A DNA stretch of 64,000 bases from Bilabrum cf. latius (lineage: Eukaryota), in NCBI GenBank assembly GCA_965178125.1, contig OZ237742.1:1240001-1304000 (forward strand), read 5' to 3'. The position numbers and the translations under genes were made by a program. A model generated the notes under the pieces. It did no database searches. It was given only the letters and a program-made list of their open reading frames with translations, and had not been told where the DNA came from. This document shows positions 1 to 64,000 of this stretch, piece after piece. Numbering within the stretch: position 1 is the stretch's first letter; each line of letters opens with the position of its first letter.

Positions 1-3000
1 GTCCAGGCCACGGGGAATCCCATGGTCAGCGAGTCTCGACCGCTTCCCATGTCCTCTTCCCGGTTCCGCAGCGGGTGGGAGGGGCGCCGCGCATCGGCCC
101 CGCGCGGGGAGCCCGGAGACTCAGACCCGCCCCGGTCATCACTCCGAGAATCGGAATCGGAATCGGAATCGGAATCGCTCCACTCGCCGTCGTCATCGCT
201 GCGGTCTGATGAATAGCTTCCGCGTCGGCCGCGGCTGTCCCTGCCTGTGCCTCTGCGGCTCCGGCTCCTTCTCCCCCTCCTCCTTCCTCTTCCTCTTCCT
301 CTGCTCCTGCTCCTTCTGTTTCTGTTCCTCCGTGCCACCCGGCCCCAGTCCCCGAAGCCTCCGCCCTCCCTCCCGTCCTCCAGCCGCATCCACCTCTCAC
401 GCCTGGACCGCATCCCTCCCGCAGACCTCGGGTCCTCCCCCTCTGCCCTCAGGCGGACCGCTGCAGTGGCGAAATGCCGCGCCACCAGGAGTGCCTCGAT
501 CTCGTTGAGGGGGAGACGGAGCGCCTGCAGGGCCGCGAGGAAGCTCCTGGAGGGCATCTCGCCAGTCTCCGCGGTGTCGTACAGCCGAAAGGTGGACTGA
601 ACCCTGACGTCATACCCTTCGTCTGCGGCCCGCATCAGTGAGGCATGCGATCGGAGCACGTCCGCGACCCGACTGACCTCTTCCTCGTCCAGCTCCACCA
701 GGCTGCACAGATCGTAGTACGACACGGCATCCCTGGGGCGGGCGCCTGAAGAGGAGGATCCAATCCCCCTCGCCCCTCTCCCCAGCCCGCTGTCCTCGTC
801 CTCACCGCCGTCAAAGTCCGTCCCAAAGCGCCTTTTGCCACCGTGCCGATCAGTGCCCTGGTCCCTTCGCCGCGGTGCAAACGACGCCCGCAATCCGAGG
901 CCACCGTCCTCCTCGTCCTCCTCCTCATCGTCGCCCTCCTCGTCCTTGCCGGAAGACCTGCCGCGACCGTTGCCCCTTCTGCCCTTCCCGCTTTCCTATT
1001 TCTACTCCCCTTTCTCCTCCTCGTCCTCCTCCCCACCGCTGGCACCATCCATCCAGTCGCCCTCACCACCACCACCACCAGCATCACCACCACCTCCCTT
1101 GCGCCAAGCCCCGCGCCTGGCCCCCCCGCGACCCGCACCATCCGGACCTCCGTCTTGATATTCATCACCACCTTCGATCCCCGGCCAGCCCCTTTCCTTT
1201 GCCTGCATCGCCAGGCGCGCCGCAAGGCGATCCACCTCCGCTGGTGTCATCTCCACGCCCAGCCTGCGCACGGCCCGGCCCAGCTCAGACCGCGAAAACC
1301 ATCCCTTGCCGGTGGGGTCCAGCTGCCGGAACGCGGCATGCACCACGAGGTCCGCGTGGCCCTGCGCCCACGAGGACTCCCTGAGGCGAGCACGGAGCAT
1401 CTGCTCCGCGGGAGACACCAGGCGCACTCCAGCGGCCCTGGCCTGGTCGCCCCCCAGCACCACCCGGAGGAACATCGAATAGTCCACCCGTCCGGAGCCG
1501 TCCACGAAGCAGCCCACGGCGGCCAGCATCAGGGAACAGTCCGCGGGCGTCATCGGCACGCCTAACACCGCCAGAGCGGCAGCAAGCTCAGACACCAAGA
1601 TCCGGCCCAGCCCCCGCGCAACGCCCTCCTGGTGTTGGACCCTCGGGTCGCTGGCCGTGTCGAACCTGGCGAGGGTCCTCAGGACCTCCCCTTGCTCGAG
1701 CCGGGGGTCCCCCAGCCCGGCCCTCACCCTGGCCGCCAACGCCAGCCCCCTGGCCTCGTCCTCTCCGCTTACCAGCAGCTGGCAGAACAGCAGGTAGTCC
1801 ACAGGTGCGTTGCGGCCAGCTGTTCTAGAGCGCCTTGCCCCACCCTTGCGCCCCTGTTCCCTTTCCTCCTCCTCCTCCTCTCTCTCCCCCAAATACGCCC
1901 GCACAGATGCAGCTCTCCTCAGCTCCTTCACTAGCAGCAGTCCGTCTCCGTGCCGCACCCCTAAAGCCCGCATCCTGCCCCTGACCAGCCGCAGAAAGAC
2001 CCTCGGCTGCACCGTTCCGTCGTCATCCAAGTCGTGGTCCGCGAACAGCACCTCCGGCCGCGCGGGGATGTGGCCACGTTCCCGGGCGCGAGCAAAGCGA
2101 CGGCGCAGGCGGTGCAGCAGCCTGCGGAACCTACCGGAAAGCGCGGCGCCGGCGCGGCTCAGCGCGTAATCTCGAGAGGAGCCGCCCCTGTGCCTGCCGC
2201 CCCGCCCTCGGCCGCGCGGCGACCCGCTGTACTCGGAATCGAAATCCGATTGACCCTCCTCTCCGTATGCGGAGCCATAGTCGTCGTCACCATTGTCATC
2301 ATAGTCCTCGTCATCGTCGAGTTCGTCATAGCTGTCATCGCCGAATCGTCCACCGTGATACCTGCCCCTGCCCCTGCCCCTGCCGCGCCCACCCTCGAAA
2401 TCGTCCTCCTCGTCAAAGCCCGCATCCTCCCCACCGTACTCACCCACCCCGACCAACTCTGCCACCTCCTGTCCCAGCGCACGAGCACCGCCCCCGATCC
2501 CCACCGCGGCGCGAAGCTGCCCCAGACCACCGCCGACTGGATCGCCGCGCCCCCGCGCAGAGACAGCCTCTCCCGCGCTCCGGAGCCCGCCACCTCGCGG
2601 TGGTTCCCTCGCTCCCACGGCCCTGCAGGCCCTGGACACACTCGTCACAGCGATGGCAGACACGAGCAGCCTGTCCCCGCCCTTCCCCCCGGGGCCCAGC
2701 AGGGGCACGGCAGTGGGAGGCAACACGGCAGGAACAGGCCTGTTGCCCCGTCCGCGTCTATGCCTGCGAGATGCCGAGGAGGCGCCGCGCAACACGTCCA
2801 TAAGCGGAACTTCCGCGCGCGCGGCAGGGGGGCTCCTACCCCTGGGCCTGCCGCCGGCGCCGCTCTCCTCCGCGACAGGGCTCAGCTCGATACAGAGGTA
2901 CGGCATGTCCTCGTTTCCACCCTCATCCTCATCCCCCCAGTCGACACCCGTATCCAGGTCCATCTCCTCATCTGTGTAATCGTCACCACGGCTGCCTCTA

Positions 3001-6000
3001 CGTCTGCGATGGGTTCTGCCGCGGCTACGATCCTGAGACTAGCCTCTGCCCCTGCCGCCGCGAGACATCGCACCGCCGCGACCGCGACCCGCCGCAGCGG
3101 CCCGCAGCGCCTCCCCCGCCGCTCGTCCCAAGGACCTGGGGTCCAGCCGCACGCTGGCCACGCTCGGGCCGTGAGATACGCCTGCCACCCATTCTGCGGA
3201 ACCGGCGCCGCGCAATCGGCCGCTCCTGCTCCGATCGCGGCCCTCCTGCTCCACGGACTCGCCCCCCAGCACGCGGAACTTTCCGAGACACGTCCCCGAG
3301 CCATCGCGCCGCTGGCCCCGCCCCCCGCCGCGGGGCCGCCCGCCCCTGCCTTGACTCCTTCTTGTTCTCCCGCGCCTTTCACTGCCCCCAGCAGACCCCA
3401 GTTCCCTCGCGCACTCGCTCAGTGGCCACAGCCGAGCAAACGACGGACCCCCGCACACGAGGTCAGATGCCCCCCCTGGCGCAGCGCCGCGACCACGCCC
3501 CTTCTTCCCCGGTATCCGCAGCGTGACCGTTGCCACCAGCCCCCCGGCCTCACCATGACCCGCCAGTTTGGCCAGTTTGGCTCCGTGGAGGGTCACCAGC
3601 ACCTCCATGGGACTTGATACAAGCGCACCAGCTGTGGCACGCCCGCCCGATGGGCCCACAGCGAGTGCACCCTCCAGCCCGGGAGACACCCTGACCCGGA
3701 ACGGCGAGCCGCCGAGGGCGCCTCCACGCCTATTTTTGCCCCTTCCCCGGTCACCGTCACCGTACAGACCGTCCTCGTCCCAGCCGTCCCCCTCGTCCTC
3801 CTCCTCGCCAGAGAAATCGCCCCGGTTACCTTCGCCCCTGCCACCGCGGCGCCCCCTTCGATTGCGGAACCTGCGACCGTCCTTTCCGTCCAAGTAGTCC
3901 CCATCCTCATCCTCATCCTCATCTTCGTACTCGTACTCTCCCCTCCCCCCGCCCCGTCCACCGCGCATGCGCCCTTGCCCCGCCCCCCTCCCGCCCAGCG
4001 TGGGCCTCGCCCCATCCGCCTCCGCCCCGAGCCTCCCTTGTTCCCCAGAGGCGATGGCCTGCTTCAGACCCACGGCTCGGCCCCCGCCCAGACCCGCCAG
4101 CCGCTGCCGCTGCGTGGCTCGGTCGGGGGGCAGTGCAGTCACCCAGAGGTACAGCCCCCTCGACCCCATGCCGGGGTCACCCAGCCCCTGCATGCCCGGG
4201 GTCCCCATCCCGGGGTCAGCGCGGCCAGCCCCAGACTCGTCCCGGCCGCTCTCACCGCTGCCCCCCCCGTCCCGGCGCCCCCTGGATCTGGATCGTGACG
4301 AGTGTGACGAGTGCTACCGCTCCGAGGGCGGCTGCCAGCCCCCGGCGCACGTCCACCTGTAGTTCTGCAGGGGCAGAAGGTCGCCAGCCGCGTACCTCCG
4401 GGGCCGCTGGGCACCGGGTGCCTGCTGCGGCTGGGGCCGCTTGGGAGGCATCATGTCGAAGGGAGGGGGCAGCGCGGGCGGCAGTGCCCCGCGCACCTGG
4501 GCCGCCTCCACCGCCACCCCCCTCTCTGCGGCCCTCCTGCCCTCGTGGGTCCTCGATGGCCTCTGGATCTGAGGGCCCGGGGTGCAGGCCACCTCCGTGA
4601 TGGCGTCGGCGGCGACACGCACCCACGCGGCGAGTTCCTCGGGGCTGGCGAACGTTCCTCGGCCCCCCGCAGCCGTCCTGCCACGCTCGCCGTCGTGCAC
4701 ACCACGGTCCCTGTCCCTGTCCCTGCTTCCCTGCTCGCCCAGCCTACCGAGAAGTGCGCGCATCCTCTCCCCTGCGCGCAGCACCCACAGCTGCCCGTGC
4801 CCGGGGATCCGGAGCCTAGCCTCGTACCCCTGTCGCTCCAGCTGCTCTGCGCCCCGCGAGTCGCCACCCCTTGCACCGCCACCACCACGGCCATCGGGGC
4901 TCACCGCCAGGCCCACGATCGCGTCCTCAGGGTGGGCCTCCCCGCCACTGGGACTCGTCTCTGCGTCCACGTCCCCGGAGACGCGGGCCGCCCCCGCCCG
5001 CAGCCGGGCGTACCTCGCCCATAGCTTGACGGGGTGCCTAGATGTGCCGTCACTGGCGTCCAGGTCGGGTGCACCGGGGACACCCTCCCCCGCGTCAATG
5101 ACCCCGCCCGGGGGTCCCTCACCGGCGCCCCCCCCCACACCTGCATGCTACAAGCCCATCCCCATTCCCATTCCGAGTCCTTGCCCTTGCGCGGGGTCCC
5201 ACGAGGCACCTGCGCCAGCGCCCAGCTGACCCTGGCCCTGCCCGTAGCCTGGCGGCAGCAGCTGCAGCGGAGCCCATCCCAGCCTCTTCATGTCCTCCTC
5301 ATCCTCCACCCTCCGTGTCCGCGCGATGTCCACCAGCACGGGATGCCTCGGCATCGTCGCGCTCTCCGCACTACCTCCATCCTCCAGCGCCCGCAAGGCA
5401 CCTCGGCCCCCCGGACCACCTCCAGCCCCGTCCCCTTCCTCGTCCAACAGGGGTACGGGGGGCGGCAGCTGGCCCCGTGCCCGCCCCGCGCCCGCCCGCA
5501 GAAACCTCACAAACTCGCTGGCAGACAGCTTGGCCGACCTGTCGGCATCGAAGCGGTTCATGATCGCCTTTGCTTCTCGCACAGTGACGGCCTGCAGCGC
5601 GCCGCCCCCCTCCTCTGCCAACCCGGCCTCCCTGAGCTGCCGCAGCACCCCGTTGACGTACTCTGCCAGCTCCACGGCGGTCACAGACCCAGAGCTGTCG
5701 GCGTCCATTTCTGCGAACGCGTCGTACGGGTGCACCCCCGACGCCACCAGCCTCTCCCCCAGCCAGCACGCCAGGTGCTCCACGCGCACCTGCACAGGGT
5801 CCACGAAGGCCTCGAAGTCTGCCGCCGTGACGAGGACCTCCCTGCCCATCCCAGAGCCCCCATCCCGTCGCAGCCGAGCAGAAGACCCCCTTGTTGCCTC
5901 CTCTGCGCCCCCTTCCTCCTCCTCTCCCCCCTCCTCGTCGATCGTGCCGATCCCGCTGCCGACAGCACCCCCCTTGGAGGACGAGAAGGAGGGGGCAGAG

Positions 6001-9000
6001 GCAGCCTGGGTGCTCGCCCCCGCAGCAGCGAGACCCCCCTGCCCCGCCAGCTCGAGGCACACGGCTCGGAGAAGGCGGTCCGGCAGGTTCCGCACGTCAA
6101 TGCGCGGCGCCGCATCTGCTGTTCCCTCGCCCATGCCCGGTCCTTGGTCGAAGGCGGAAGACGAGGCCGGCGGGGCTGCCATGGGCCCGCCAGAGCCACC
6201 ACCCTGCCCGGCGTCTTGCTGCTGCTGCAGCATCTCCCGGAGCAGCACGCGCACGTCGCTGGTGGTCAGGCACAGCTCGTTCCTCGAGAGCTCGTTGCGG
6301 CCCCGCCCGGAGGACGCGCTCGCGGCTCTACCCCTCCTGGAGCTCCGGTCGAATGCCTCCAGCGCCCGCCTCACCTCAGCCTCGTCGAACCGCATGCCCA
6401 TGGCCCGCCGGCATCGCCCCAGCGTGGCCAGAAAAAAGGCGCGCTGGTCAATCCCCCCGCCCGCACCAGAGCCAGGGCCCTTCCCGTGCTCGCGGCGGGC
6501 CCGTGTGACGAGTGCGGCCCGCAGGCGCACTACGGCGTCCAGCACGGCCTCCTCCTCCTTCTCGATCCCTTCCACCAGCTGCCGCAGCTGCTGCAGGTAC
6601 ACGTAGCCGTGCTCACCGATGCGCATCCGCTGGCACAAACCGTCCAGCTCACCGGGGGACAGCCGGAAGCCGAGGAGGGGCCCAAGCACCGCGGACTTGA
6701 ACTGTTCCCTGGTCACGTACCCCGTCTCCGCGGGGCTCTGCGAGTCGCCTGCCCCGGACCGCCCGCCCCCGTCCAAGTCGTCGCCGAATCTGCTGCCGTA
6801 GCTGCCGCCAGCGCCCGCCCCGCCTCGCTTCATGCCTCCCTACAGCCGGCGAGGGGCTGGCACGCCCCCGTCCCTGCCCCTGCCCCTGCCCACGCCTCGG
6901 TCGATCCCGCTCGATCTCCTGTCCTCCAGCCGGTCGGTCCCCCCCCTGCTGCCCCCAGCTGCTCCCGCGTACCCCCCGTAGAAAGCGGGGTCGAAGATGT
7001 CCTCGAGCTCGTAGCCCTGGGCGAACAGCTGCAGCAGACGCTGTGCCACGTCCCTCGTCAGCTCGTCCAGCTCTATGTCATCCAGAGACACGAACTTCCT
7101 GAACTCGTCGTAGCTGACCCTGCCGTCCCCCGAGGCGTCCACTCGCTCGAACAGAGCTCCAAAGTCCTTCGGTGCCAGCGACACCTTGAAGGGGGCTCCC
7201 CGGATCCCCTCCACGAACTCCTCGCGGGTCAGCCCCTCCCCCGCGACCTCTCTCACCTCCTGGTCCAGGTCGCGACCGCTCGCCTGCATGTGCGCGGCCG
7301 CGGCACCCAGCTCGCGCAGGTCGGCAGGCAGGGTCAGCGGCTCGCCCCTCCTCGACCTGGCCCGGGCACTCCCCCGCGCGCCCCCCCCACGGAGGGGACT
7401 GACCCCACCTTCACCCCCCGAAAACGGCCTGCCCCCGTGCCCCGCCCCAGGGGTCGCCATGGGCGTCCCCGGTCCGTCGCCCATGAAGGAGGGCAGCCGC
7501 GCCAGGCTGCCAGAGGCGTGGGACGCAACACCAGCACCAGCACCAGCACCGGCACCGGCACCGGCGGACCCGCCTGCTCCCCTGCCGCCGTTTCCTCCCG
7601 CCCCGCTCAGTGCCCCCAGTGCGTTCTGCGCGATCATCAGGTACACCAGCCTCAGATCCAGCACGCGGCCCGTGTCCGGGTGGGAGGCTGCCGCCCGGAT
7701 GCGCTGCCTGAGCCTGGCCTCGACGTCAAGGATGGTGGCCTGCTGCCTCGCCTCCACCTCCCCCGCTGCGCCGTCGTCCGCGTAGGATGCCTTCCTATAC
7801 CATAATAGCACGCTACTCCCCAGGGCCCCCTTGTTGAAGTTGCCCGGCATGCGCTTGAAGCCCCTCTGCGGCAAGAGCGCCTTCTCGTCAGTCGTGAGCA
7901 CGACGTCCAGCACCGGCTGCGCTCCCCTGCCCGATTCGCCCACGCGCCGGACCCAAAGAAACTGCCGCGGGGCCGTCATGTTGCCCCCATTGACGTCCAC
8001 GGGACACACCTCCCACCCGTCGGCAGACAGTGCGGCATCCGCGCTCTCCCCGAAGAGGCAGAGGTCAGTCACTGCCCGCCGCATTGCCGCCCTCCGTCGC
8101 TTCTCGTCTTTCACGTCGCACAGTCTCAGGACATACAGGTGCATCGCGTGGCCCTGGTTCATCCTTCCGCTGTTGAGGCTCACTGGGAGCTTCTTGTACC
8201 CCAGCTGCACCAGCCGGTCGCACCTGCTCTGCGCGCTCTCGAGCTCAACCTGCACGTCTACCACGGGCGCCACGTCTGCGGCCGCGACGCCTCCCCTGCC
8301 CGCGGCTCCGGCGCCTTGCCCCTCCCCCCCGCTGCCACCCCCCATCAGGTCCTCTGCCTGGGCCTGGAGGAAGGCGGCGAATTCGTCCACCGACACGAAG
8401 CCGTTCCCGTCGGCATCCAGCAGCTGCATCATGGCGTCGGCTTCCCCATCCGAGAGCGTCAGCCCGCACAGCTTTCGCGTGGCTGCCTTCAGGTCCTCCT
8501 TGTCCAGCTTGTCAGGGTCTGCGCTCCTGTCCCGCGGCCCGAACCAGCCGGCCCCGCCCTCGCCCTTCCTGAGCTCTTCGAGCGTGTTGCGAAACACGGT
8601 CGGGAAGTCCTGCACCTGGTAGAACTGCGTGAGTACCTGCTGCCGCAGCAACAGTGCCACCTGTCGCACTTCCTGGCTGTCGAATGCGACGTACGAAATG
8701 AACTCGGACCAAGCGATATCTCCGCTGCCATCCAGGTCCAAGCGAAGCGCCAGCTCGTCTAGCTGTTCTGCAGACAGCCTGTGCAGCCCCGGCAGGGATC
8801 TGACAGCCCTTTTGAATTCTTCCAGCGTAAGCGTGCCACTTCGGTCGGAATCGAACTCTGCAAGAGTTGAAAGCGTTCAGTCGCCAACAGCAACTCGGTG
8901 AGCAGGGCCCAACAGCGGCAAGAAGGGCACCGGGCGGCTCATGCACAAGCATGTTGCATGATCATGATGCATTGATACATTGCATGATTGTCTCACCTTG

Positions 9001-9165
9001 GAATTTCTTTTGAATCAGTTCAACAAGCTGAGCATCTGTTTTCACAGGTTTTCCGTTGGAGTCTTTCGCACTCTGTCTTATTTGTTGGCGGATCGTCCCG
9101 CTCGCAAGCGAAACATGATCAGCACCGTCAGCGCCTCCAATGGCTGGCCCACCCGAAGCGGCCAT
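1..9165 (-). CDS. Giant multi-EF-hand calcium-binding protein with MABP (beta-prism) domain and a possible C2-like segment; 3' end runs off the window (about 3,000 aa visible)
   Basis: ATG at 9165, intron 8858-8996 (GTGAGA...CAG) joins KFQ-E-FDSDRSGTLTLEEF. ORFs 6840-8741, 5148-6833, 4314-5138, 3039-4208 and 1002-2963 share one frame, separated only by TAG (6840, 5148, 4314, 3039, 1002, 996); the frame stays open towards position 1. EF-hand loops include DLDGSGDIAWSEF, DADGNGFVSVDEF, DASGDGRVSYDEF, DADSSGSVTAVEL and DPTGKGWFSRSEL. MABP-like repeats: GYKKLPVSLNSG, GWEVCPVDVNGG, GFKRMPGNFNKG...LWYRK. Confidence 0.85.
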
Positions 9166-9315
9166 GTTGATTCTGAAAACGAGACCCCAACGTTTCGTGA
9201 ACGTTGGCCCCGACTCGGCGAACCTTCACGAAGGATCCGATTCAGAGACGTTGGCGGAGCCGAGGTGGAACCAAACGTAGCTGTAGCCTACCACGTGCCA
9301 AGGGCAAGCGCTACA

Positions 9316-12300
9316 ATGCAGGCGTCGAGTAGATCAGGAGTTACAACTCGTTCAAGGGCCAAGCGCTCGCGGACCTAGATCACGGAGACGCCGCCAGCCC
9401 TGCGTCGGTCGAGGCGGCGGGCTGGGGCGCGAAAGGAATCCGGGACCGCATCTGCTGCAGAGTCCGGCGCAGAGGGATCCAGGCGCCAAGGTAGAAGCAG
9501 AAAGACATACAAAGCTTCCGACAGCCCGCCTTCCAAGCTCGTTCGGGTGAGCGCTTCCCCGACTGGCAAAGCAGCTGGAGGAGCAGGTGCCGGATCGAAG
9601 GCAGGGAAAAAGCAGCAATAGAAGACAAAAAGAACCGCTCTTGGAGACGCAGATTCATCTATGAATGCAAGCGGGGCTGCCTCCCACTACCAGCAGGATC
9701 AAAGCGAAGACATGCGCGTTCAGACTAGGGTTCGGGTGGTGCGCGCTAGGCCTGCGAAATCCGCCGGCACCGCTGGGGCGTCTGTACCCGCTGGCAGAGC
9801 AACCAGCCGGACTAGAACAGAATCAAGCAAGACCAAGAAACCGGCTGTTTCGGGCACGGCTTCGGCAGCTCCCGCGGAACCGCCGGCCGCAACGGTGGCA
9901 TCCGCATGTCCCTCGCAGCAGCGAGCGCGAGCAGCTGCTCGGTCTTCCGCCCAGAGGAAGCGAGCAGCGGCACCGTCCGCCGCCTCGGCGGTACGGTCAG
10001 GCCGTCACGCCAGCTTCAAGATCTCCTCCGGCCCCGCACGCCGAGCCCGGGGCAGGGCAGGGCCGGGGCACCCAGGCACGCAGCAGACCCCGTCCAACCG
10101 AGCAGCAGGCGGCGCCGCGCCGGGTTCCGCAACCTCGGCATCATCGGCCGCATCGGCTGCATCGGCTGCATCCTCCTCTTCCTCCTCTTCCTCCTCCCGG
10201 CTGCTGCAGCCCACCGCCTCAAGCGCCGCGCGGCGGTCTGCCATCCGAGCCCGGTCTCAGTCCCGGGGGGCCGCTTCCTCCAAGCGACCGGTCTCCATGG
10301 GTGGCACTGGGGGGTCGGGAGCAGGGAAAGGCGGCAGGGCCCGTAGCAGGGCTCATGCGAGGACGTCTGTGGGCGGGAGAGGTGTGACGAGTGCGAAGCA
10401 GGAGCAGAGGCAGCAGGCCGCGGGAGCGTCGTCGTCGTCCTCGTCGTCGTCCTCGGCAGCAGCCGCCCCGGTGGCAGCGACAGGCGATTCCATCACGTCT
10501 CCAGGCGCCGCCCGCCGGCTGGCGGCCTCCATGTCCTCGGCACGGCGGAGCGGTGTGACGAGCGCGGGAGGTCGCGGTGCAGCGGGCCGCACGTCGATCC
10601 GGTCCGCCTCCCGCTCACGGGGAGTGGGGGCACGAGGGGGGAGGTCCGCGAGCAGGTCCCGGGGTGGTGTGACGAGTGTTGGTGCTGCTGGTGTGACGAG
10701 TGCAAGCCGCGTGTCGATCCGGGGGTCTCCTGGCCAGCGGCGCCGGCAGCAGCAGCGGCTGTCGATCCTCAAGGCGGCCTTCTCACCCGCCGGCAGCCTG
10801 CGGCGCGGCAAGCACGTGCGGATGCTGCTCACGAGCAAGATCAAGGAGGCGAGACTGGCTCTGGAGGCGGGCGACCTCCGAGCGGCTCGGGCTGTGTACG
10901 AGGGCCTGCCTGCCGAGCTGCCCGAATGCAGGGGCAAGGCCCTCTACTGGCTGGGCTGGTCCCGCATGGAGGAGGGCGAGGGCCGGCTGCAGGAGGCCGC
11001 CGAGCTGCTGTCCAAGGGGCTGGCGCTGTGCCGGTGTGACGAGTGGGAGCACGACTGCCTCACGCAGGGAGCCACCCAGTTCGCCAGGCGGATGGCCTCT
11101 TCCTCTTCTTCTTCCTTCTCCTCGTCTTCTTCATCGTCCCAGGGCCAGTCAGCGGCTGCAACCGCCAAGGCGCTCGTGGAGAAGGCCGTGCAGGAGGAAG
11201 AGGAAGAGGACGGGCAGGAGGAAGAGGAAGAGGAAGAGGACGGGCAGGAGCAGGGACAGGAAAAAGGACAAGGTCAAGGGGAGCACTCGCCTGCGCCCGG
11301 CAAGTCCCCCGCCGCCCGCCGGCTGGACGAGACGCTGGCAAGGGCGAGGGGCCGGCTGGACAGCCTCAGAGACGTGAGCGACGGGCCGGCGCCGCGCACT
11401 CCCAGGCAAGTTCCGCAATCGGTCGGAGAGGGAGTGCAAGGCAACAGCCCCAGCCAAGGTGCAGCCAAGGTGACAGGCGAGGAAAAGGAGGAGGAATCTG
11501 AGGCGGAATCTGAGGAGGAGGAGGAGGAGGAGGAGGAGGAGGCAGCCACTGGCACCGAGTCAGCGGATGGAGGGGCTGCCTCCTCTACCGACCTGGCGTC
11601 CCCACAGCCCATGCAGCTGACTGCGTCCACTCGAAAGGCACTGCGGAGCCGCAGCGGTGGCAAGCCGTTCGCGATGCGCGGCGCCGCTGACCCGGCGACC
11701 CCTCCAGTTCCGCCGGCCATGGGATCGGACCAGGATCAGGGTGATGACGCGGAGGTATCTCCGCAGCTGCAGCTGGCACGGACGCAGCTGCTGCCCCCCG
11801 AGCTGCCAAGCGAGGAGGAGGAGATGGGTGCAAGCACTGCGCGGCAGCTCTTTTCGGGCGGACAGGCGGCCATGCAGGACGGGGAGGATGTAGGAGCAGA
11901 AGGGGGCGAGGACGGGGACGGGGACGAGGGCGGGCGCGCTGCCGGGAACGGCGCGCTGCCACGCCTCTCGCCCGCAGCCGCGGACGGGCCCGGCTCGCCC
12001 GCGCTGCCCCGACTGAGCGCAGCATCGGCCGCGCTGCTCGCGGGGACGGGGACCCCGGGGATGGTGGGGGGGGAATACCCCCCCCGCCTACGCCTGAGGC
12101 TCGGCGGGGTCGCGGGCGACGAGAACTGCCGGAGGGCAGCCGAGGCTGCGGTGGCTGACCTGGCCGGCGACTTCATCGCGGGGGGCGACTCGCTGGACAG
12201 CACGGCCAACACGAGCGGCACTGGCGGCGCGAGAGGTTCCGCAATGGACGCGGCGCCGCGCGACGACGCCTCGCTGGAGGAGCTGGGCCAATTCGCTGAG

Positions 12301-13713
12301 GAGGACGCGGACATGGGGCCCGTGGGGAGGTATGAGGGGTTCACGGATGACACGGCGGACTGGCCGTTTGGGGGGGCCGGAGCAGGCGAGGGCGAGGACG
12401 GTGATGGAGTCTGGGCGGCCGGTGGAGCGCGGGACGGAGCTCACGGGTCCGGGCGGGGAGCGGCCAGCGGAACCATCCGGGACGGCGCCGCGGCGCCCGT
12501 GCCGGACTCCGCGGGGAGCGGCAGCAGCGGCCGAGGAGGCAGAGGAGGAGGCTCAATGTCTAGTGCGCTGGCAGGGGGCTCTGCGTCCGCCCGAGCGTTG
12601 TCATCGGGGGCGGGCGGCCACGCCCGTGTGCCGCCCTCGCCGGCGCTGCCCACGGCCAGGCGGCTGGGGAACAGCGGGCACGGGGTGGTGGTGCAGCAGC
12701 CGCTGGGATCCGTGGTGGTGCTGCAGCAGGTGAGCGTGCGGCCCTCAACGGCAGAGGCCCTCGGGTCTGCCTGGGCCGTGTCTCCGGTCCGACGGTCTTT
12801 GCGAGTGGTGCAGGGGCACGGCGGGGGGGGGCAGGAGAGGATGCACGACGGAGACAAGGAAGGAGAGGAGGGCAATGAGGAGGAGGAGGAGGAGGAGGAG
12901 GACGAGAATTTCCCAGTGGCCCGGCTGTTCCGCCCGGCCCGCCTCGAAGACGTGGACTACGCCTTCCTGCCCAATAGTGCGGTGGCTGGCATGCACGCGG
13001 GTGTCATCGCGCCGACGGGAACGTCCGCGCTCACACGGAGCGCGGCGAGAGCCATCAATGGTGGCAACGAGCGGAGGAACAAGAGGCAGGAGCAGGGGCA
13101 GCAGCAACGCAGGCTGTGCGCCACGGCGCGCAAGGCCGGTGCGCAAGGCATCGCAGCGGCCGGCACCCCTCGCGCGAGGACGAGGCCAGGGGGGCTGCTT
13201 CTCCAGCGGTCGCAGCAGCAGGCTCTGACCCCCGGCGCTGGTGCTGGGGCCGGGGCCGGGGCTGTAGCAGCGCGACCCCGAGTGCCAATGACCGCGGCAC
13301 CGGCGGGTGCTGGCGCAGGCGCGGTCGTGAGCCGGTCCCGTCTCCCGCTGGGGGGCGCGCCCGGCTCGGGAGCTGCATCTGGGCGCGAGAGACGGGCCCT
13401 TGACTTCGGGGGGGATGGGGGCCGAGGGAACAGCGAAGGTGACGGCGATGAGGCGGGGGGCAGCGGGCCCGTGGGATATGCTGCGGCTCTGCAGGCGGCC
13501 ATGGATCGGAGGGAACAGCGCAAGCCCAGGTTCATGGGGGGCCGCAGGGGGCTGGCGGGGGCCTTGAGGAACAGCAGCATCGGCGGCGGCGGTGGTGTGA
13601 CGAGTGGCGGGAAGGTGGCTGCGGCGGGACCGCAAGGGGCCAAGGGGCTGAGCGCAGGGGCTGGGGCTGTCGGGACGAGCGCGTTCCAGCCGCAGGCGCG
13701 TGCGGGGCTGTGA
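9316..13713 (+). CDS. Large low-complexity protein (1465 aa) with CKAP2/CKAP2L C-terminal-like motifs; putative microtubule/spindle-associated protein
   Basis: Listed ORF 9661-13713 extends in frame to ATG 9316 through two TAGs (9376; 9619 in the context CAG CAA TAG) and ends in TGA. Motifs LPECRGKALYWLGWSRME, VSPVRRSLR and YAFLPNSAV resemble CKAP2_C (KYW..LA, TPVRRS.R, PN.AL). Family call is from motif recall only. Confidence 0.6.
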
Positions 13714-50257: not shown

Positions 50258-50670
50258 ACCACAAGCTGGGCTGCTCCTCGGTGGGGGGGGCTGCGCTGCT
50301 CGCTATCACACCATTTTTCTATCACTGCTTTCCAACACCCGTGCCTCAGCCGGCCAAAAAAACAAAAAACTCGGGAGAGCGCCCCGGTCCGAGCCCAACT
50401 TCCGGCTCAGGTGCCAAGCTGCACCCGAGCCTAGAAGTCCGCTCTGGCGCGATCTCTGAAATAGGGGCAAACCCAGTTTAAACATTAAAATATTCGGCTT
50501 GGGCAAAGTTGCCTCGTGCCGAGCCAAACTTACGGCTCGGGCACGGCCGCCGTCTGCCACAGCCCAAAGTTCCGCTGCGGCGCCGCGGCGCGCGCCGCCG
50601 GAGTCACCATTCAGCTGACGGCCCACCCACTTGTCTCGAACCGATTTCTGCTGTCTAAATAAGCCAACAG

Positions 50671-53600: not shown

Positions 53601-54714
53601 GGAATCCAGCACCACAGCTGGTGAGGTGGGTGTCCTTTCGGTAGTGGCGCAGGGGCAGCAGGACTGGCAGCAGGCACCGACAGACCGCGCATCTGGAGAC
53701 ACCCTCTCCGTCCGCCTGTGGAACACGAGGGGCCTTGACGAGGAGATTGTGTCTCTGGGCGCCGTGTCGGAGCTGGTGCGCCACGCTTACGTGCTGAACG
53801 GGAGCGAGGTCCTGCTGATCTCGTTCACAGACCTGGACGACGAAGGGCAGGACGAGCTGATCCGGGTGGACATAGCGAACGGCGGGTAGCAGACCCGCAT
53901 CACCTGCCCCAGCACCTCGCTGCCGTTCCTTTCGGGGCCCAAGATGAACCGGGTCGGGAACGAAGGAGTATGCTGGGTGCCCGCTGCAGCCGAGTACAAC
54001 GAAATTGACCAGCACCTGGTGTGCTACTTCAAGGGCAGGGACGCGTGTGACATCTTTGACTTCGCCAGCACAGAGTCCATCGATGGGTCGCAGCCCTTCG
54101 GGACCATCCCTGTGGCGGACCCTGATGACGTCACCTTTGCGATGGTGACCCTCGCAAATGAACCCAGGATGCTGATGGAGCCGGTGGTCATGGCAGTGGT
54201 GCCCCCAGTGCCCGTGGCACTGCCTTCCCCGACCCCCAGCACCACAGCTAGCCCTACCCCCAGCACCAGCGCTAGCCCGACCCCCAGCACCACAGCTAGC
54301 CCGACCCCCAGCACCACAGCTAGCCCGACCCCCAGCACCACAGCTAGCCCTACCCCCAGCACCAGCGCTAGCCCGACCCCCAGCACCTCGTCGGCAGACA
54401 CTGGGGGTGCAGTCACCCAGCCGTCTCCCAGCTCTACAGCCACCAACGGAACGGTCGGGGACCTACTCACTCAGGACACCACAGTCGAGGACGACGACAG
54501 CCTGGGAATTGGTACTGTCGTTGGGATTGCGATTGGTTCTGCCATCCTATCGGCCATCGTGACGGGTATGTGCTGTCTGTTTGGCATGTGTTCGTGCGGG
54601 CGCACCCGCTCCACGAAGGAGAAGGAGAATGAGAAGGACTTGGGGAGGGCGGTCGACGTTGGGCCTCAAGCAAAGGCGAGCACAGGGCAGCCAGCGGGGG
54701 CAGAGGCTGTGTGA
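50671..54714 (+). CDS. Type I cell-surface protein, 1347 aa: signal peptide, beta-rich repeat ectodomain (ELWxxDGT-like), mucin-like PTS stalk, TM helix, Cys-rich juxtamembrane tail
   Basis: ORFs 50671-50856, 50872-53313, 53344-53889 and 53944-54714 share one frame joined by three TAGs; ends in TGA. Recurrent DAELYWVD / WHEIYFWGG / DEQIFYFDG / GADLVVWD / QDELIRVD motifs. TM IGTVVGIAIGSAILSAIVTGMCCLF. Confidence 0.85.
54226..54387 (+). repeat. Coding 24-bp tandem repeat (SPTPSTTA / SPTPSTSA, ~6.5 units)
   Basis: AGCCCGACCCCCAGCACCACAGCT units visible directly. Confidence 0.95.
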
Positions 54715-56584: not shown

Positions 56585-59500
56585 TCACGCGTTGGCTCCA
56601 CCCCCGACACCCCTGGTCCTCCTGAGTACCTGGCTCTCGTGCCCCACAGTGGCATCCCCGGGCCGAAGCACGGGGGCCTCCTGCACCAGGTCGAGAAAGG
56701 CAGCCCCGGACACCTGCCGCCCCTGCCAGTTGGCCCCGACGGCACCGCTTGCCGCTACCGCCTGCAGCTGCGCGCGGCTGAGGGCCCGCAGCATCCCGGT
56801 CCCGTCGTCCGCCCCCAGCTACGGCGCAGCGGCACGGCCCGCCACCCGCGGCACGACCTGGCCGTGGCCTCGCACCAGCACCACGGTGCCCCCCTCCATA
56901 GGGTGCAGCTGATCCGCAGGCACCGTCCCCGCCGGCCCCAGCCCCGCCTCCAGCCGCCCCGAGAGCGCGTGCGCAAGCGCCGCCGCCTGCGTGGCGGGCG
57001 GGCGCACCCACCCCGCCTGTAGCGCCCTTGTCTCCGCCCGCCGACTCAAAGACAGCTGCCTGCTGATGGGCCGGGAGCCAGTGCCCGCCATCACCTCGGG
57101 CCCAGCCAGCGCCTCCCGGCCCGGCCCCTGCAGCGGCGGGACCAGCATCCTGAGGCCCGGCATGTGGGCCATACGCCCGTCCTGCAGCATGTACCCCACC
57201 CGTGGATCGGCCGACCGTGCCGTCACATCAAAACCGGGCTGGTCGATGGACTCGGCTTCGAAACCACTCAACGAACCGCTGCCCATGTCCAAGCCAGGGG
57301 TCGCCAAAGTCCTGCTAGCAGAAGCCCCCGCAGCTCCTTTGGCCTCCTCAACCTCTGCTCCAATGCCTCGGCCCCCTGCCGTCCATTCGAGCTGCAGCTG
57401 CCTGGGTGCACGCACCGTGCTGCGACCGTCCTCGCCCGGCCCTGCCTGCAGCTGCAGCACCATGCTCCCCTCCCTACCCGCGCTGCCCCTCTCCATCCCC
57501 GGGGTGGGCCTTCCCTTCCGGTGCGCCCCGCCGTGCAGCACGTGCTCTGGCTCCTGGAGCCGAAGCACCAGAGGCCCCACCGAATGGGTCAGTCGCCCGG
57601 GGGTCCGCGGGTCCACACCGGCGGCAGAGCCCGCCCACGCCTCCCTAGGCAAGAGGGCTCGGTCCATGGCAGCCTGTGCCTCGTCACCGCGGGGGAAAGC
57701 TGCGGGGGCGGCGCCCACGTCCCGGCGCACCTCCACCCGCCAGAACGACCCCGCTGACGGCGCGATGTTCCTCTGCAGGAAGGCCTTGTAGTGCCCGTTA
57801 CACGCGCGCCCCTGGGGCGTGGGGAACATCAGCACGTGCAGCCTCCTCCTCCCCGACGATTTCTTGCACAGGTCCCCGATGCAGCCAGCGGCCGCAGTGG
57901 GCCTGGCCAGGGCCCGCGGCCTCGCGTCCAGGAGGAACCCCCCGAGCTGCGAGGGAACAACCAGGGAACAACGGGTGTTCCACTCGGCGCCCATGGCCAG
58001 CAGCATGGCCCAGGCAAGGAACTCGACGTGGGTCGAGTCGGGCAGGACCAGCCGACGGGTGCGGCCCAGCATCGGGTCGTGGCATATGCACTCCACCGGT
58101 GGATTGAACTCACGCCAGCGCAGGAGGCTGTCCCTGTCCAGCAAGCCCACCGCCGAGGAGGCCGCCAGTTTGGACGTGTGTGACACGAAGGGCGTCTGGT
58201 CCACCCCGGGCACTGGCCCGCTGCCACTGCTGCTGCTGCTGCTGCCTGGGCGGTTCGATGAGGACGAGGATGAGGGCAAGGAAGGCGCACCGGCGGGTCC
58301 TGCCAGTCCCCCCACGGTGCTGGACGGCACGTCTTTGGCCACCCTCAGGCTGGGCGCCAGGCTCAGAGAGGAGGACCTCAGCACCAGCGGGCCCTTGGGC
58401 ACCTTGGCCAGCCGGGGCTCTGCTGATGGGTCACTATCTGTGCCCCGGTGCTGGTGCTGGTGCTGGGAGCCTGTGTTGGGCTTTCCTGCATTTGGCGTCT
58501 CTGTGTCCGTCCTGGGCGCAGCTCCCATGCTGCTGCGCTTGCCTCCTCCGTGCACTGCTGCCGCACCACCGCGCGATGCACCCCCGGCACCACTGGCCCC
58601 GTGAGTGCTCCGCCTCCTGCTCGCGCGCCTCCGTCCGTGCCCGGGACCCGGCTCGGGCAGCCTCTCCGGGCTTGATCCGAAGGCGTTCCCGATGAGTTCT
58701 TCCAGGGCGTGCGAGGCTGCGTCGGGCAGCTGGGCCGCGGCCTCCTGCGTGCTGGGCGCCTCCGCCCCGCCCAGCCGGGACTTGGGGCGCGCACTCGTCA
58801 CACCAGCGCGCGACGGCACATTCGCCCCGTTCTCCATTCCCTTCTCCGATTCCCCCCCTCCCGGTCCAGTTGCAGCCACCTTGCTGCCCTTGCTCGAGCG
58901 GCGCCTCCCACCTGTCCCGCCTGTCCGGTCCTTGCCTTTGCTCTCGTCCTCGTCCTTGTCATCGTCCTGCAAATCCTCCGGGACGGGCACCCCCAGCACA
59001 CGCGCGAGGCCCACCAATCCCAGGCCAGCCGCCTTGGCCTGCTCCATCGCTGCCTTCACCTACTCGGGACCTGGGGGCACCCTGCTGCCGCCGGTACCAC
59101 TTTCACCCACACCAGCTGAAGCGCCTCCCTCGTTCCCCGATGCTTTCGACTCCGAGTCCCCTAGAACCCCCCCACCCCCCTCCGCCAGCCGCCGCTGCAC
59201 CGCCCTCGCCACCCCTGCCGCCAGCCGCGCCCTGGCGGCATCCCTCTGTTCCCTCCTCGCCTGCGCCGCCTCCTGGTCCTCGTCCACCGCCACGAAGGAG
59301 CCAGCCGCTGCGTGACCCGCCGCGCGGGCCCCCGACCGGTCGAAGGCCGCCACACCCGCGTGCCTCCCGAAGGTGGTCTTGATCCTGCCCCCCGGGGACC
59401 AGCAGGCGGGGCAGCCCACCTCTCCCGTCCCGCAGATCTGGCAGCCCTCCCGCGCCCACAGGGGCCAGTCGGGGCGGGGCGCGGCCGCGGCGGCCGCCTG

Positions 59501-59992
59501 CTGCTCGGCGTCTCGGGCGGCCCGGGCTGCATCCAGTTTGGATTCGGAATCGAGGACCCTGCTCGCCGCGATCGACGAGGCGCCAAGGGTGCTGGCACCC
59601 TGGGAAGCCCGGCGGGAGGCAGGGGCGCCGATGGCAGAGCCTTGCGCACCAGCCGCGATCGGAGGCAGCGCCTATAACCTGTCGTTAGATGTAGCGTCTC
59701 CTTTTGCGACTGGCGAAACGTGGGAGGGCAGAGGCCCGGGAGTTGCCGCAGATCCGTTGATAGCTTCAATCGCTTGCAGCTGCTGCCGGAAACCCCCTTC
59801 TACCGGCATACCGCTAGCTGCCGCCATGCGAGCCTTTCGTCTGAGTGCTTGCAGTTTCCGAAGCCTTTTGTCCCTCTGCCGTCGCTTCTCTTTCTTGGCA
59901 GCCTCCGCAGTTGCAGTCGTCTCCTTGGGATCAGTCTGACCTTCTGCCTGGTGGCCACGAGAAGCGGCCCGACTGCTGGCACCATTCTCCAT
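56585..59992 (-). CDS. Hypothetical protein, 1135 aa, low-complexity, with a CxxC-x5-CxxC motif
   Basis: ORFs 59672-60058, 59060-59419, 56819-59059 and 56585-56794 share one frame joined by three TAGs; ATG 59992, ends in TGA. CQICGTGEVGCPAC motif. Confidence 0.75.
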
Positions 59993-60545
59993 GGCCACAG
60001 AAGCCTTACGAGCACAAAGAATCGAACATGAAATCCTAGTGGGAGGGTTGCGACCCACGAAGCTGAAAATCAGAACTCGACAGTTGCGTGTACCAAGACA
60101 CTGCCATGTAGACCGGACAAGATCGGGCTCATTTTGGCGGCTCTCATCAACGATTTGCTAATAGCTGAGCTGAAACCGTCGAAACTATTCAGTTTAGTTT
60201 CAGCAGACTCGCGTAGCTGTCCCCAAGAGCCTTGTTGAGTGAGATTCGGCCCAGCAAGCTTTTTCGTCGATTGAGGCAGTCAACACGGGAATCCCGCCAC
60301 CAGCGGAGCCCTCAGAGTACCACCAGACCAGTGCATCCCGCTGCAGGAGAGAGCACTAATTAGTAAATATCCAGCTCTCGTGAAAGGGCCTATCGACGGC
60401 ATTTTCACTCCAGGGATTCCGCTGTAGAGATTCGGTCCACCGTTGCGTGGCACCCGAGCTCTGCACTGCCGGATCCAGCCTGAATTTATTCAGTCATACC
60501 AACAGAGCTGGAAGTTCCCCCCCGCTCATATTGGTGGTGCGAGCT

Positions 60546-63500
60546 ATGGAGGCGGAAGATAGGGTAGTGGGGATCAGCTAGTCTCAGCTCGGTAAACTCG
60601 GTGAGGCGGGGCACGTTGCCCCGCTTGGAAGCAGTCACGAAGAGTCAGCGAGTACAGAGCTAATAAGAAGACAAATTAGGCGAGCAAGCTGCTCATTTGT
60701 AGAAGCGTGGAAGGGACAGGAACTAGAATTGCCAAATGTGCCCGCTGATCTTGAGCAAGAGGTTCGCGCTGCAGAACGCGCCGCTGCAGCCGCAGCGAAA
60801 GCGACAAATGCTCCCGCCACACAGCCCAAAGATGCTACAAGGATGGAAACAGCACTGGATGGTGAAGGGTGGGCGCGCGTGGCCGCTGCCTGGGTGCTCG
60901 TGCTCGCCTCATCTCGTGCGCAGGCGGCCATGCTGGCGGCCAGGCATGCCGTGGCCACGGGCGAGCTTGCGACCGGCCAAGCGCCCTCCATTGAGGCGGG
61001 GACGCGCACGGGCGCCCTCCTCCTCGCCCTGCGAGCCGCCACACACTGCCTGCCCTCCCCCTCACCGGAGCAAGCAGCCGTGGAGGCCGAGTGGAGGCGC
61101 ATCGATCGAGCAGGTGGGGAAGGAGGGGCAGCAGGAGGAAGACTCGCTACCCAAGAGCGGCGGCGGGTCCTTGGTGCAGTGGTGGATCTCTGCGGAACCG
61201 GATTGGCGCCGCGCATGAGTGCAGGCGATGCGGTGTGCGCCAAGCAGCGGCCCGGCAGCAGGGGCAGGCCGGGGCTCTCGAGGGTCGCCAGGCTCTCTGC
61301 GAGCGCCAGCGGGCAGGTGCTCCGAGCGCCGCTGTAGCATCTGCTCGGTGGCGGGGGCGAGCACGGAGAAGGGTGGATCGGTGGCGCCGGTGGGGGAGAG
61401 AGCGTGACGAATGCGCTGCTGGCATCGGGCGGGTACTCGCAGGCAGTGGTGCTGCGGGAGTGCGTGTCGGCTTCAGGGAACAAGGGCAGGGGCGCAGCCG
61501 TGCACTCGTCACGCGGTGCGGTGTCTCCGCATGGCCTGTCCCGGCTGCCCCCAGGGGAACTTGCGCTCGCCAGGGGGTGGCAGGCAGGCTCTCCGCTGGC
61601 GGTGGGGCGCAGTGGTGGTGGGGGGGCAGGTGCGTGGGGAGCGCAATCATCGTCTTCGGCCGGGTCTGAGTTTTTGAATTCCTCCTCTTCTTCATCTTCC
61701 TCCTCCTCCGCCTCCGCAAGGGGCGTGGTGCTGGCAGGGAATCCGCTGGGCCGCGTGGATGCGCGTCGGTGGCTTTGGGGGCGGGTCGGGGCGGCCACAC
61801 TGAGCGAGGAACAGGAGGACGCGGCGGGGCTTCGGCGGCAGGCGGGGCTGCTGCTGATGGAAGACCGGCGGAGGGAGGGGCAGGAGGGCAGTGCAGGGAA
61901 CAAGGGCCACAGTGTCCCGGGTGGTGGAGATGCAGGTCAGGCCGGGTCGGAGCGTCGCATGGGGCAGCTGGCAGACCGGCGCGAGCTGGTGTCCATCTCA
62001 CTGGGAGCAGTGCTGGGAGCTGGCAGGCCTGGGCATGGAGACGTCGGGCCGGGGGGTTGGTGGGAGCGTGCTCTGCGCGCGTGTGACGAGTGCGGGGTCT
62101 GGAGCGCCATGCACCGATTGCTTGAGCTGGGTGGCTGGGGACTGTCACGGCGAAAGTTGAAAGCAATCGACTCGCCGAGCGGTGGGGGCAAGGGAGGGCG
62201 CGCCCATTCTACCACTGCCGGTACTGTTGGCAGCGCGGGCCAGCCGGGCGCTGCCAACTCGGCGTCAATCCCCGAAGCCAAGCACGGCAGCCGAGGAGAG
62301 CCCGCCTCGCCCCCCAGGGGTAGCTTGCGCCGCAGCAGCGGGAGGACGCCCAAGCGGTCCCCTCGCGCGCGGTCCGGGACTGGCAGCACCCCTTCCCCTT
62401 CATCGTCCTCGTCTTCAAGCAGCGGCAGTAGTGGCACCCAGGGCACAGGGGCAGACACGGCCGGCAGCAACGGGTCCAAACCACCGGTGGATCGCGCGCC
62501 TTCCCAGCAGCAGCTCCACGAGCTGGAGCCTAGTCCGGCAGAGACCGTGGCCATGCTGCGAAAAGGGCCCGCGCTAGGGGTGCTTCCTTTCTTTGGTCTG
62601 TGCGCCGCGAGTGCGACCTGCCTGGGGCAGGCCCAGCAGCTGGCCGGGGTGCCTCGAGGACCCGGCTCCGAGGCGTTCCCCGGGCTGTTCTCCGTGCAGG
62701 TGTGCTGGCCCGAGCTGCGAAGTGCAGAGGAGCAAGTAGCTCTGCTGGAAGTGGCCCGCGAGTTCGTGCTGGGGCGGGAGGGCATGGGGAAGAAACTGCC
62801 GAGGGGCACCGAGCTGCAGGGCACCGAGCAGCAGGGCAATGGGGAGCTGCTGGGCGCGATTGGGGCTCAGTTGGACCGTGTGGCCGGGAAGATCCTCAGG
62901 AGTGCAGTGCCTCAGGGGTGGGACGGGCGCGCCAGCGGGCCAGGAGCGTCCGTGGATCTTGCGGCCGGCCTTTGGGTCTCACCAGGCCATGGCTTTGGGA
63001 CAGGGCCAGGGACAGGGACAGGGACAGGTGCCGTGTCTGCCGCTCCCTTGGTTGACCGGCGCATGGTGAGGAGGAGGTATCGGGCGAGGCAGTGCCTGTC
63101 TCGGTGGGTGCACCGGAGGGCGCGCGGGCGGGGTGCATCAGCGACCCACGTTGTGGACTAGGGCCAGAGCCAGGATCAGGATCAGGGCCAGGGCTAGAGC
63201 CAGAGCACACCGCTGCTGCAGCCGTCGATCTCCAGCGATGTGGTCGAGCCACAGGAGGGCGACGAGGTCGATCGATCACACTCGATCTCGGCGGAGATGT
63301 CCTCGGACAGCGACGGCGTGGAGTCAGAGTCGGGGAGCGACGCGGATGCCCTTGAGGCGGACCAGGCCGACGACTCGGCCCGCCGCAGGTCCCTGCAGCT
63401 GGCGAGGGCCATGGCGCGGCGGCAGGCAGCCGAGTAGGCAGAGCAACGCAATGCGATGCACCCTTGGGTGCGAGCAGGTAGAGCCGCAGATACCGCCCAT

Positions 63501-64000
63501 CAAATCGGTGGAAGCGAGGATCCGCACACGCCGGACTCTCCGATGGGCAGTCTCGGGCTGCTAGACGCCGCCGGTGTGCTGGCCTCGCTGACCCCAGCGC
63601 GGGGGCACCGTCGTGCGATGCACCCGGGGGGTTCGTAGTCCTTGCAGCGGCCGCCGGGCATGCTCGGAGCCAAGCGGTCCAGGGAACAAGCCCTGGGGCT
63701 CGGCGGGGAGACAGAGGGGGCCGCACCCGTCAGGACACCGCCCCGGGGTCACGCCGGGCACGGCCCGGGGAACAGCCCTGGGTCCGGCAGGGCGGGCACA
63801 GGATCGTCTAGCTCCCTATCGATGAGCAGCCCTGCGCGAGGGGGGCGGGGGCCAGGGGGCCAGCGGCGGGGGGCGCAAGCAAAGGCCCGGGGCTCGCAGA
63901 CAGCGCCCCGCAGCAAGCTGGGCGCAGGCGCGGCCGTGGGCTCCACGGTGCAGCAGCTGCTCTCCCAGACCAGGGAACAGGAGTGGGAGTTCCGGGCCAG
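60546..64000 (+). CDS. Hypothetical low-complexity protein; 3' end runs off the window, start uncertain
   Basis: One frame from ATG 60546 to the window end with six TAGs (60579, 61335, 63159, 63195, 63435, 63636) and no TAA/TGA. Confidence 0.75.

Follow-up and report, generated by a model that had tools for sequence, protein, structure and literature searches.

Gene content of the window and in-frame TAG codons

A stretch of 64,000 nucleotides (nt) from Bilabrum cf. latius (GenBank assembly GCA_965178125.1, contig OZ237742.1, positions 1,240,001 to 1,304,000, forward strand; hereafter the window) was analysed with regard to the TAG codons that stand in frame within its protein-coding genes. 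The window has a G+C content of 64% and its genes are eukaryotic nuclear genes. Four of these are housekeeping genes (RPS3/uS3, a DFRP1-like gene, WDR92/DNAAF10 and STT3), and the further content consists of a giant gene in a single exon, a giant EF-hand protein, an SRCR-domain protein, a non-LTR retrotransposon and several long low-complexity frames without a Pfam family (Table 1). An earlier reading made from the letters alone (the sequence-only reading) had proposed that UAG specifies glutamine in this genome while UAA and UGA still terminate translation. On the evidence presented here it is highly probable that nuclear translation in this organism reads UAG as sense, most likely as Gln, with UAA and UGA as the sole terminators, as in NCBI table 15.

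A total of 63 in-frame TAG codons was counted in 12 gene models, which have 16,891 codons in all between the initial ATG and the stop. The sequence-only reading had put about 64 TAGs across 12 genes; the count was borne out, while the spread was found to be over 11 models, as STT3 (936 codons) contains none. Those TAG coordinates of the same reading that were checked (in RPS3, WDR92, DFRP1, the reverse-transcriptase motifs, the Gln runs and the x-Q repeat) were all correct, and the 25 TAGs that it had reported for one giant exon are present in the frame at 28164-40037. The lack of in-frame TAA and TGA in the models is by construction, since these codons were used to delimit the frames. When these coding sequences were read in the +1 and +2 frames, TAG occurred 79 and 84 times, TAA 21 and 25 times and TGA 242 and 306 times, respectively; TAG is therefore about equally common in and out of frame, while TAA and TGA are excluded in frame.

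When TAG was treated as sense, the longest stop-to-stop frames increased from 1363 amino acids to 3957, 2958 and 1803 amino acids, while treating TAA as sense gave no gain. The giant single-exon gene carries its 25 TAGs with no TGA in frame, compared to 42 and 88 TGA codons in its two off-frames, and under the standard code it would be divided into 26 successive open pieces, all in the same frame.

TAG accounted for 63 of the 688 CAG, CAA and TAG codons (9.2%). It was scarce in the genes with the strongest codon bias (G+C at third codon positions, GC3, of about 0.9), with one TAG in RPS3 and none in STT3, and commoner where GC3 was about 0.67, as in the giant gene (25) and the reverse-transcriptase open reading frame (ORF; 9). 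With a GC3 of 0.89, STT3 is an example within the window of a highly biased gene that avoids both TAG and CAA.

Table 1. Gene models of the window and the in-frame TAG codons for which a site or comparator is discussed (positions are those of the window)
Feature	Position	Strand	Details
Giant EF-hand protein	3..8876	-	Pfam EF-hand_7 at 1e-39; runs off the window; 6 in-frame TAG, all in low-complexity stretches
Low-complexity ORF	8968..13713	+	No Pfam family; stop TGA; 2 TAG, of which one belongs to a Q-Q-TAG run (9613-9621)
DFRP1-like	16610..18331	-	Exon 1 18262-18331, intron 17881-18261, exon 2 16610-17880; stop TGA; Pfam DFRP_C
DFRP1 in-frame TAG	18296-18298	-	Codon 12, exon 1
RPS3 (uS3)	18488..19537	+	Exon 1 18488-18493 (ATG GCT), GT..AG intron 18494-18649, exon 2 18650-19537; stop TGA 19535-19537
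RPS3 in-frame TAG	18692-18694	+	Codon 17
WDR92/DNAAF10	20326..21769	-	Exons 21326-21769 and 20326-21111; stop TGA; PDB 3i2n at E 7e-116
WDR92 in-frame TAG	21566-21568	-	N-terminal exon
STT3	22075..25142	+	Transcript exons 22075-22272, 22387-22639 and 22774 onward; stop TGA; Pfam STT3 at 2.5e-67
Giant single-exon frame	28164..40037	+	3957 codons stop to stop, 3804 from first ATG; 25 TAG; stop TAA
Giant-gene TAG opposite Glu in relative	30636-30638	+	Column 825; fragment P0125; only non-Gln of six
Giant-gene TAGs opposite Gln in relative	33024, 33522, 33567, 33753, 34422	+	Fragments P0126, P0127 (78%, 90% identity)
SRCR-domain membrane protein	40507..45918	-	Pfam SRCR at 6.9e-34; 6 TAG after first ATG; stop TAA
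Non-LTR retrotransposon ORF	46155..50321	-	Pfam RVT_1; PDB R2 and LINE-1 ORF2p; 9 TAG after first ATG; no frameshift; stop TGA
TAG of motif P-Q-G	48186-48188	-	Column Gln in 160/162 aligned domains
TAG of motif Q-x-G-F	48468-48470	-	Column Gln in 163/169 aligned domains
Secreted or membrane protein ORF	50659..54714	+	3 TAG; stop TGA
ORF without Pfam family	56585..60193	-	3 TAG after first ATG; stop TGA
ORF running off the window	60384..63998	+	6 TAG; those at 63159 and 63195 at Q positions of an alternating x-Q repeat

Amino acid at TAG codons

The reverse-transcriptase (RT) segment of the retrotransposon (47622-48884, minus strand), which contains four TAGs, was searched against 1.84 billion representatives, and the best 150 matches were aligned to give 175 domains. 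Two of the four TAGs had been assigned from sequence alone to the conserved Gln of RT motifs, and this was upheld by the alignment, in which Gln occupies the Q-x-G-F column in 163 of 169 domains and the P-Q-G column in 160 of 162. Among the 421 columns of the alignment these two had the highest Gln fractions, the next highest being 24%. Gln is also present at both sites in the structures of R2 and LINE-1 ORF2p, and at the P-Q-G site in four out of four lineage-specific RT fragments (40-55% identical).

A search with the giant single-exon protein for shorter proteins identified four at E <= 1e-10 among 8,000 candidates scored. All four fragments, which are 78-90% identical to the giant protein, lie on one 13,948-nt contig of one relative. 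This orthologue covers 6 of the 25 TAG columns, with the residues Q, Q, Q, Q, Q and E (P = 4e-7 for at least five Gln of six at a background Gln frequency of 3.7%). The fragments end opposite TAG 937, CAG 1893, TAG 2126 and GAG 2932 of the window gene; such ends are as expected from a standard-code ORF caller if in-frame TAGs are present in the relative as well. A Sel1-like appearance of one TAG context in the giant gene was considered and dropped, as Pfam gave no family for the giant protein, including the part encoded at 33000-35000. The corresponding search with the SRCR protein for shorter homologues gave no match at E <= 1e-8 among 7,999 candidates and added no columns.

Overall, a comparator of any kind was obtained for 13 of the 63 TAG columns, of which seven have Gln and one has TAG in both species; the remaining five vary or hold a different residue (Ala, Lys, Asn, Glu or mixed). 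The enrichment of Gln in conserved columns facing TAG, which the sequence-only reading had named as a check, was seen in this small sample, Gln being dominant in the two RT motifs and present at five of the six sites in the giant orthologue. On these alignments, Gln is the only residue which recurs at constrained TAG sites.

TAG codons near the N-termini of essential genes

RPS3 was identified by the Pfam families KH_2 and Ribosomal_S3_C and by matches to uS3 chains in PDB (E 1e-64). A scan of metagenomes located a relative of the organism (L001, 3,768 nt) whose RPS3 exon is 88% identical to that of the window at the DNA level. The same exon structure, the TAG at codon 17 and the TGA end are all found in the relative, whose C-terminal tail contains a further TAG, facing a CAG of the window gene. 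Because the trait is common to both, the recoding predates the split of the organism and its relative. In the DFRP1 gene of the same relative, Asn faces the TAG of the window, and a TAG of its own lies in a poorly aligned stretch. The remaining loci from the scan (L002-L018, 30-55% identity) were left out, being uS3 genes from different organisms.

In essential genes of this organism translation continues past UAG, which stands within the first 17 codons of RPS3 and DFRP1. The sequence-only reading had listed the N-terminal TAGs of RPS3, WDR92 and DFRP1 among the observations behind its proposal. They prove that TAG is read, but not that the residue is Gln, since the columns concerned hold Ala in most homologues, Lys in human WDR92 and Asn in the relative, respectively.

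RPS3 also has an insertion of approximately 13 residues past the N-terminal helix (18740-18790 in the window; about 2080-2130 in the locus of the relative), which is common to that locus and to a protein in public sets (P0004) and is not found in the other aligned uS3 sequences.

Retention of TAG in mature RNA

Contigs from four sequencing runs were aligned to positions 16001-36000; three of the runs (X5, X6 and X7) come from three different studies. X5 and X6 were judged to be RNA because their contigs are spliced, one contig ends in poly(A) and depth is uneven, ranging between bins from about 4 to about 4,160. Bins with little or no coverage were disregarded. Contigs of these two runs skip the GT..AG introns at 18494-18649 (joint 18493>18650, in X6), 22273-22386 and 22640-22773, as well as 21112-21325 and 17881-18261, whose CT..AC ends correspond to GT..AG on the minus strand. 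The DFRP1 joint (17880>18262) and the two GT..AG joints of STT3 (22272>22387 and 22639>22774) were each present in two RNA runs.

The RPS3 contig of X6 (1150 nt) matches 18650-19713 with 0 differences, ends in a run of A followed by adapter and retains the UAG at codon 17. For WDR92, RNA contigs from both X5 and X6 match 19723-21111 joined to 21326-21932 with 0 differences, the TAG included. Three X5 RNA contigs from the giant gene (28451-30343, 31292-33964 and 33947-36000) have 0 differences and no joints and span 13 of its TAGs. X7, in contrast to the spliced runs, is a DNA run, and its unspliced contig agrees with 20986-24502 at every position. None of the covered TAGs had an alternative letter listed in the run contigs.

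Since the RNA contigs of two studies and the DNA contig are identical to the window at TAGs, the RNA contigs being spliced elsewhere, introns, editing of bulk transcripts and sequencing error are excluded as sources of these codons. Two of the checks set by the sequence-only reading are answered by these data: UAG stays in spliced or polyadenylated RNA at the TAGs of RPS3, WDR92 and 13 sites of the giant gene, and the contigs show TAG rather than CAG at these sites, with 0 differences in the two RNA studies and, over 20986-24502, in the X7 DNA.

In the X6 RPS3 contig, the 29 letters 5' of 18465 match nowhere in the window with up to 3 mismatches allowed. These letters could derive from a non-coding exon further upstream, from a spliced leader or from a chimeric assembly; no comparable 5' leader was present on the WDR92 and STT3 contigs. 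Between 72 and 99% of the sampled words of 16400-25400 were found in runs that carry four organism labels and belong to four studies, and RNA contigs from two of the four labels are identical to the window. In some of these runs the organism may be present through co-culture or contamination. Runs with small word shares (X10-X21, except X20) were left aside as evidence on habitat.

Termination codons

All 12 complete model ends are at TGA (9) or TAA (3), in agreement with the statement of the sequence-only reading that every complete gene model ends in one of the two, in frames which were themselves delimited by TAA and TGA. Ends were compared with homologues for WDR92 and RPS3, and loosely for DFRP1, and none is at TAG. 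The C-terminus of WDR92 aligns to the last residue (357/357) of the human chain 3i2n and is followed directly by TGA, and the stop of RPS3 is TGA in both the organism and its relative.

CAA makes up 131 of the 625 CAA and CAG codons (21%). If UAA were also read as Gln, about one fifth of the UAR codons would be expected to be TAA; none was found compared to 63 TAG (P = 3.7e-7), from which it follows that UAA is not a Gln codon. Together with the off-frame counts given above and the use of TGA and TAA at gene ends, this upholds the earlier claim that UAA and UGA still act as stops.

Alternative explanations

Several observations weigh against UAG being a Gln codon, or reduce the force of the evidence for it. 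In the RPS3 codon-17 column, 105 of 120 homologues have Ala, five Lys and four Gln; the WDR92 TAG faces Lys in the human chain, the DFRP1 TAG faces Asn in the relative and the giant-gene TAG in column 825 faces Glu. Only six columns were available from the giant orthologue, from a single contig of a single relative, and the other two TAG columns of the RT domain are variable (column 312: E 6, Q 4 and K 3 of 22; column 45: G 19, A 12 and R 11 of 72). The two RT-site TAGs could in principle be CAG>TAG nonsense mutations in a dead element, which is countered by an RT frame of 1329 codons with no TAA, TGA or frameshift. The TAGs in Gln runs to which the sequence-only reading had pointed (9619-9621 and 39798-39800) do exist and are anecdotal, as Gln occupies 6 of the 126 positions beside TAG (4.8%), not significantly different from 4.1% overall, and compared to 7.8% beside true Gln codons. 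The absence of TAG at gene ends is partly by construction, TAG having been treated as sense, and comes from 12 ends. No record states that X5 and X6 are RNA. No tRNA or other Rfam family was found in the 64-kb window by ARAGORN and Rfam, nor was a tRNA found by ARAGORN in the 3,768 nt of the relative, and eRF1 is not among the genes of the window. Finally, the strand opposite STT3 (22751-25276, minus strand) has a frame of 841 amino acids that contains 18 TAGs and neither TAA nor TGA and matches no Pfam family; a frame interrupted only by TAG is therefore no proof of a gene by itself, and ORF calling with TAG as sense will yield false antisense genes in this G+C-rich genome.

Ambiguous codes, in which the same codon serves as stop and sense, are known from Condylostoma and karyorelict ciliates and, for UAA, from Blastocrithidia. 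A dual meaning of this kind, with UAG read as Gln within genes and acting as a context-dependent terminator of some, is unlikely here but is the most credible of the alternatives. It would be compatible with a set of only 12 gene ends delimited with TAG as sense, with possible termination of the SRCR gene at its last TAG, 26 codons before TAA, and with the scarcity of TAG in the most biased genes, which suggests less efficient decoding. Against it, no TAG is found at the ends checked with comparators (WDR92, and the RPS3 of both species), a predicted C-terminal hydrophobic membrane anchor is encoded beyond the last TAG of the giant gene, and in DFRP1 and RPS3 the TAGs come so early (codons 12-17) that stopping there would abolish the protein. 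That UAG encodes a different amino acid is very improbable; Glu, Lys and Asn would be the nearest candidates, Leu and Ser being known from other UAG-only codes, and Glu, Lys, Asn or Ala do face TAG in some comparators. None of these recurs, however, whereas the only near-invariant TAG columns, those of the two RT motifs, are both Gln, the giant orthologue has Gln at five of six sites, and a TAG of the relative faces a CAG of the window. Least credible of all, to the point of being almost negligible, is an origin of the TAGs in sequencing or assembly error, pseudogene nonsense, missed introns or RNA editing back to CAG. One transition turns CAG into TAG and would likewise place TAG on Gln columns, and the frame opposite STT3 illustrates that TAG-only frames arise without coding; yet at TAGs the window is matched without a difference by RNA contigs of two studies and by the DNA contig of another, the RPS3 TAG is kept in a relative with only 88% DNA identity, and 25 TAGs are spread over 11.9 kb without TAA, TGA or frameshift.

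Under the preferred reading, of UAG as a Gln codon beside UAA and UGA as stops, decoding would involve a tRNA-Gln with the anticodon CUA, which would pair with UAG and not with UAA, and an eRF1 in which recognition of UAG is presumably weakened. New TAG codons would arise mostly by CAG>TAG changes, which would now be synonymous.

Comparison with known codes

In Iotanema spirale (Fornicata), UAG is read as Gln and UAA and UGA are stops, with UAG making up about 8% of Gln codons; the report describes no UAG as a bona fide stop, gives 104 ends at UAA and 15 at UGA, and notes a change in the GTS motif of eRF1 (PMC5304391). Its free-living marine relatives are described as having the standard code (PMC9161772). 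As in Iotanema so described, UAG alone appears to have become a Gln codon in the window, as a minor codon (9.2% compared to about 8%), with UAA and UGA terminating. Unlike in Iotanema, where ends are mostly at UAA, those of the window are mostly at TGA (9, compared to 3 at TAA). Iotanema is, as reported, an anaerobic gut flagellate known from its transcriptome, whereas here the window has 64% G+C and a close relative shares the code.

UAG-only reassignment to Gln is also reported for Protocruzia tuzeti and two phyllopharyngean ciliate lineages (PMC11687900). The codon table of these ciliates, as given there, is identical to the one proposed here, and they represent further independent uncouplings of UAG from UAA. 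The window differs from them in its 114-381-nt GT..AG introns, retrotransposon, 64-kb contiguity and 64% G+C. Its uS3 scored 167 bits against the Tetrahymena chain, compared to 216-222 bits against animal, plant and Euglena chains. Macronuclear genomes in ciliates are generally AT-rich and their introns very short; the window does not look like such a genome.

Among other codes in which UAG alone is reassigned and UAA is kept as a stop, UAG is reported as Leu in the rhizarian exLh (PMC5304391) and as Ser in Scotinosphaera (cited in PMC11687900). As far as these accounts go, both resemble the present case in this respect and in having a CUA-anticodon tRNA as predicted reader, and differ in the amino acid, which is Gln here. 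In the more widespread codes of NCBI table 6 type, both UAR codons are Gln, as reported in many ciliates, hexamitin diplomonads and others (PMC5304391); the meaning of UAG is the same and a tRNA-Gln(CUA) is presumably shared, while UAA is also Gln in those organisms and TAA ends three genes here. Phages of the crAss-like group with genetic code 15 read TAG as Gln, with metaproteomic support (PMC9523058). That is a phage system which, on this account, works with bacterial release factors, whereas the window is part of a eukaryotic nuclear genome. A search of the main texts of open-access papers found no published report of UAG-only reassignment to Gln among stramenopiles or in any other high-GC protist outside the ciliates. 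The type of code is already known; the lineage appears to be new.

Placement of the organism and implications for annotation

An RPS3 tree of 23 rows was built from 20 organism-named matches among the 120 listed, one half of a tandem Symbiodinium protein, P0004 and the window. The window and its relative L001 share a very long branch (1.66 changes per column); Cafeteria is the closest by path, and no sister is supported. The organism had been called stramenopile-like in the sequence-only reading; the path to Cafeteria is a hint in that direction, given by a single tree with a long branch and no supported sister. The Protein Atlas entries for STT3, which comprise distant glycosyltransferase clusters only, were uninformative on taxonomy.

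Whether these data mark an unreported, independent origin of UAG-only reassignment to Gln is a question on which we regard the chances as evenly poised. The lineage concerned would be one of fast-evolving, high-GC marine protists outside the ciliates, with at least two species and possibly near the bigyran stramenopiles, and the change would be old enough for UAG to be conserved at the same RPS3 site in both. If this were the case, the organism would be the first non-ciliate with UAG as Gln whose genome gives direct access to the sequences of the suppressor tRNA, Gln-tRNA synthetase and eRF1, the assembly and transcriptomes being public. Nuclear codes that split UAG from UAA are rare, and each origin serves as a test of the loss of UAG recognition by eRF1 with UAA kept and of the recruitment of a tRNA-Gln(CUA).

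Annotation of this genome and of its relatives under the standard code leaves genes cut short or split, and instances are present in public protein sets. The RPS3 of the relative (P0004) starts there at an internal Met past the TAG and ends at the second TAG, the giant gene of the relative has been split into four pieces or more (P0124-P0127), and public RT fragments (P0128 and P0133) begin at the first Met after the TAG of Q-x-G-F. Re-annotation with TAG as Gln is required before comparative work on the lineage.

Other features of the window

In the DFRP1-like protein only the DFRP_C domain was matched, and the remainder is mostly acidic and lysine-rich low-complexity sequence; no zinc-finger family was found by Pfam at E <= 0.01 in the large exon of the gene.

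Between STT3 and the giant gene, two tandem paralogous genes on the minus strand (25439-25978 and 27441-28157) encode small secreted proteins with a Q-V-V-Q-G motif, which we take from that motif to be cystatin-like. Both genes are part of a duplication (about 25101-25979 and about 27126-28043, 90.6% match) that repeats the 3' end of STT3 as well. The first copy stops at TAA and the second continues for 19 codons, and TAGs are found only upstream of the ATG. RNA depth was high (745, in X5) in the bin 25339-26005, at the first copy.

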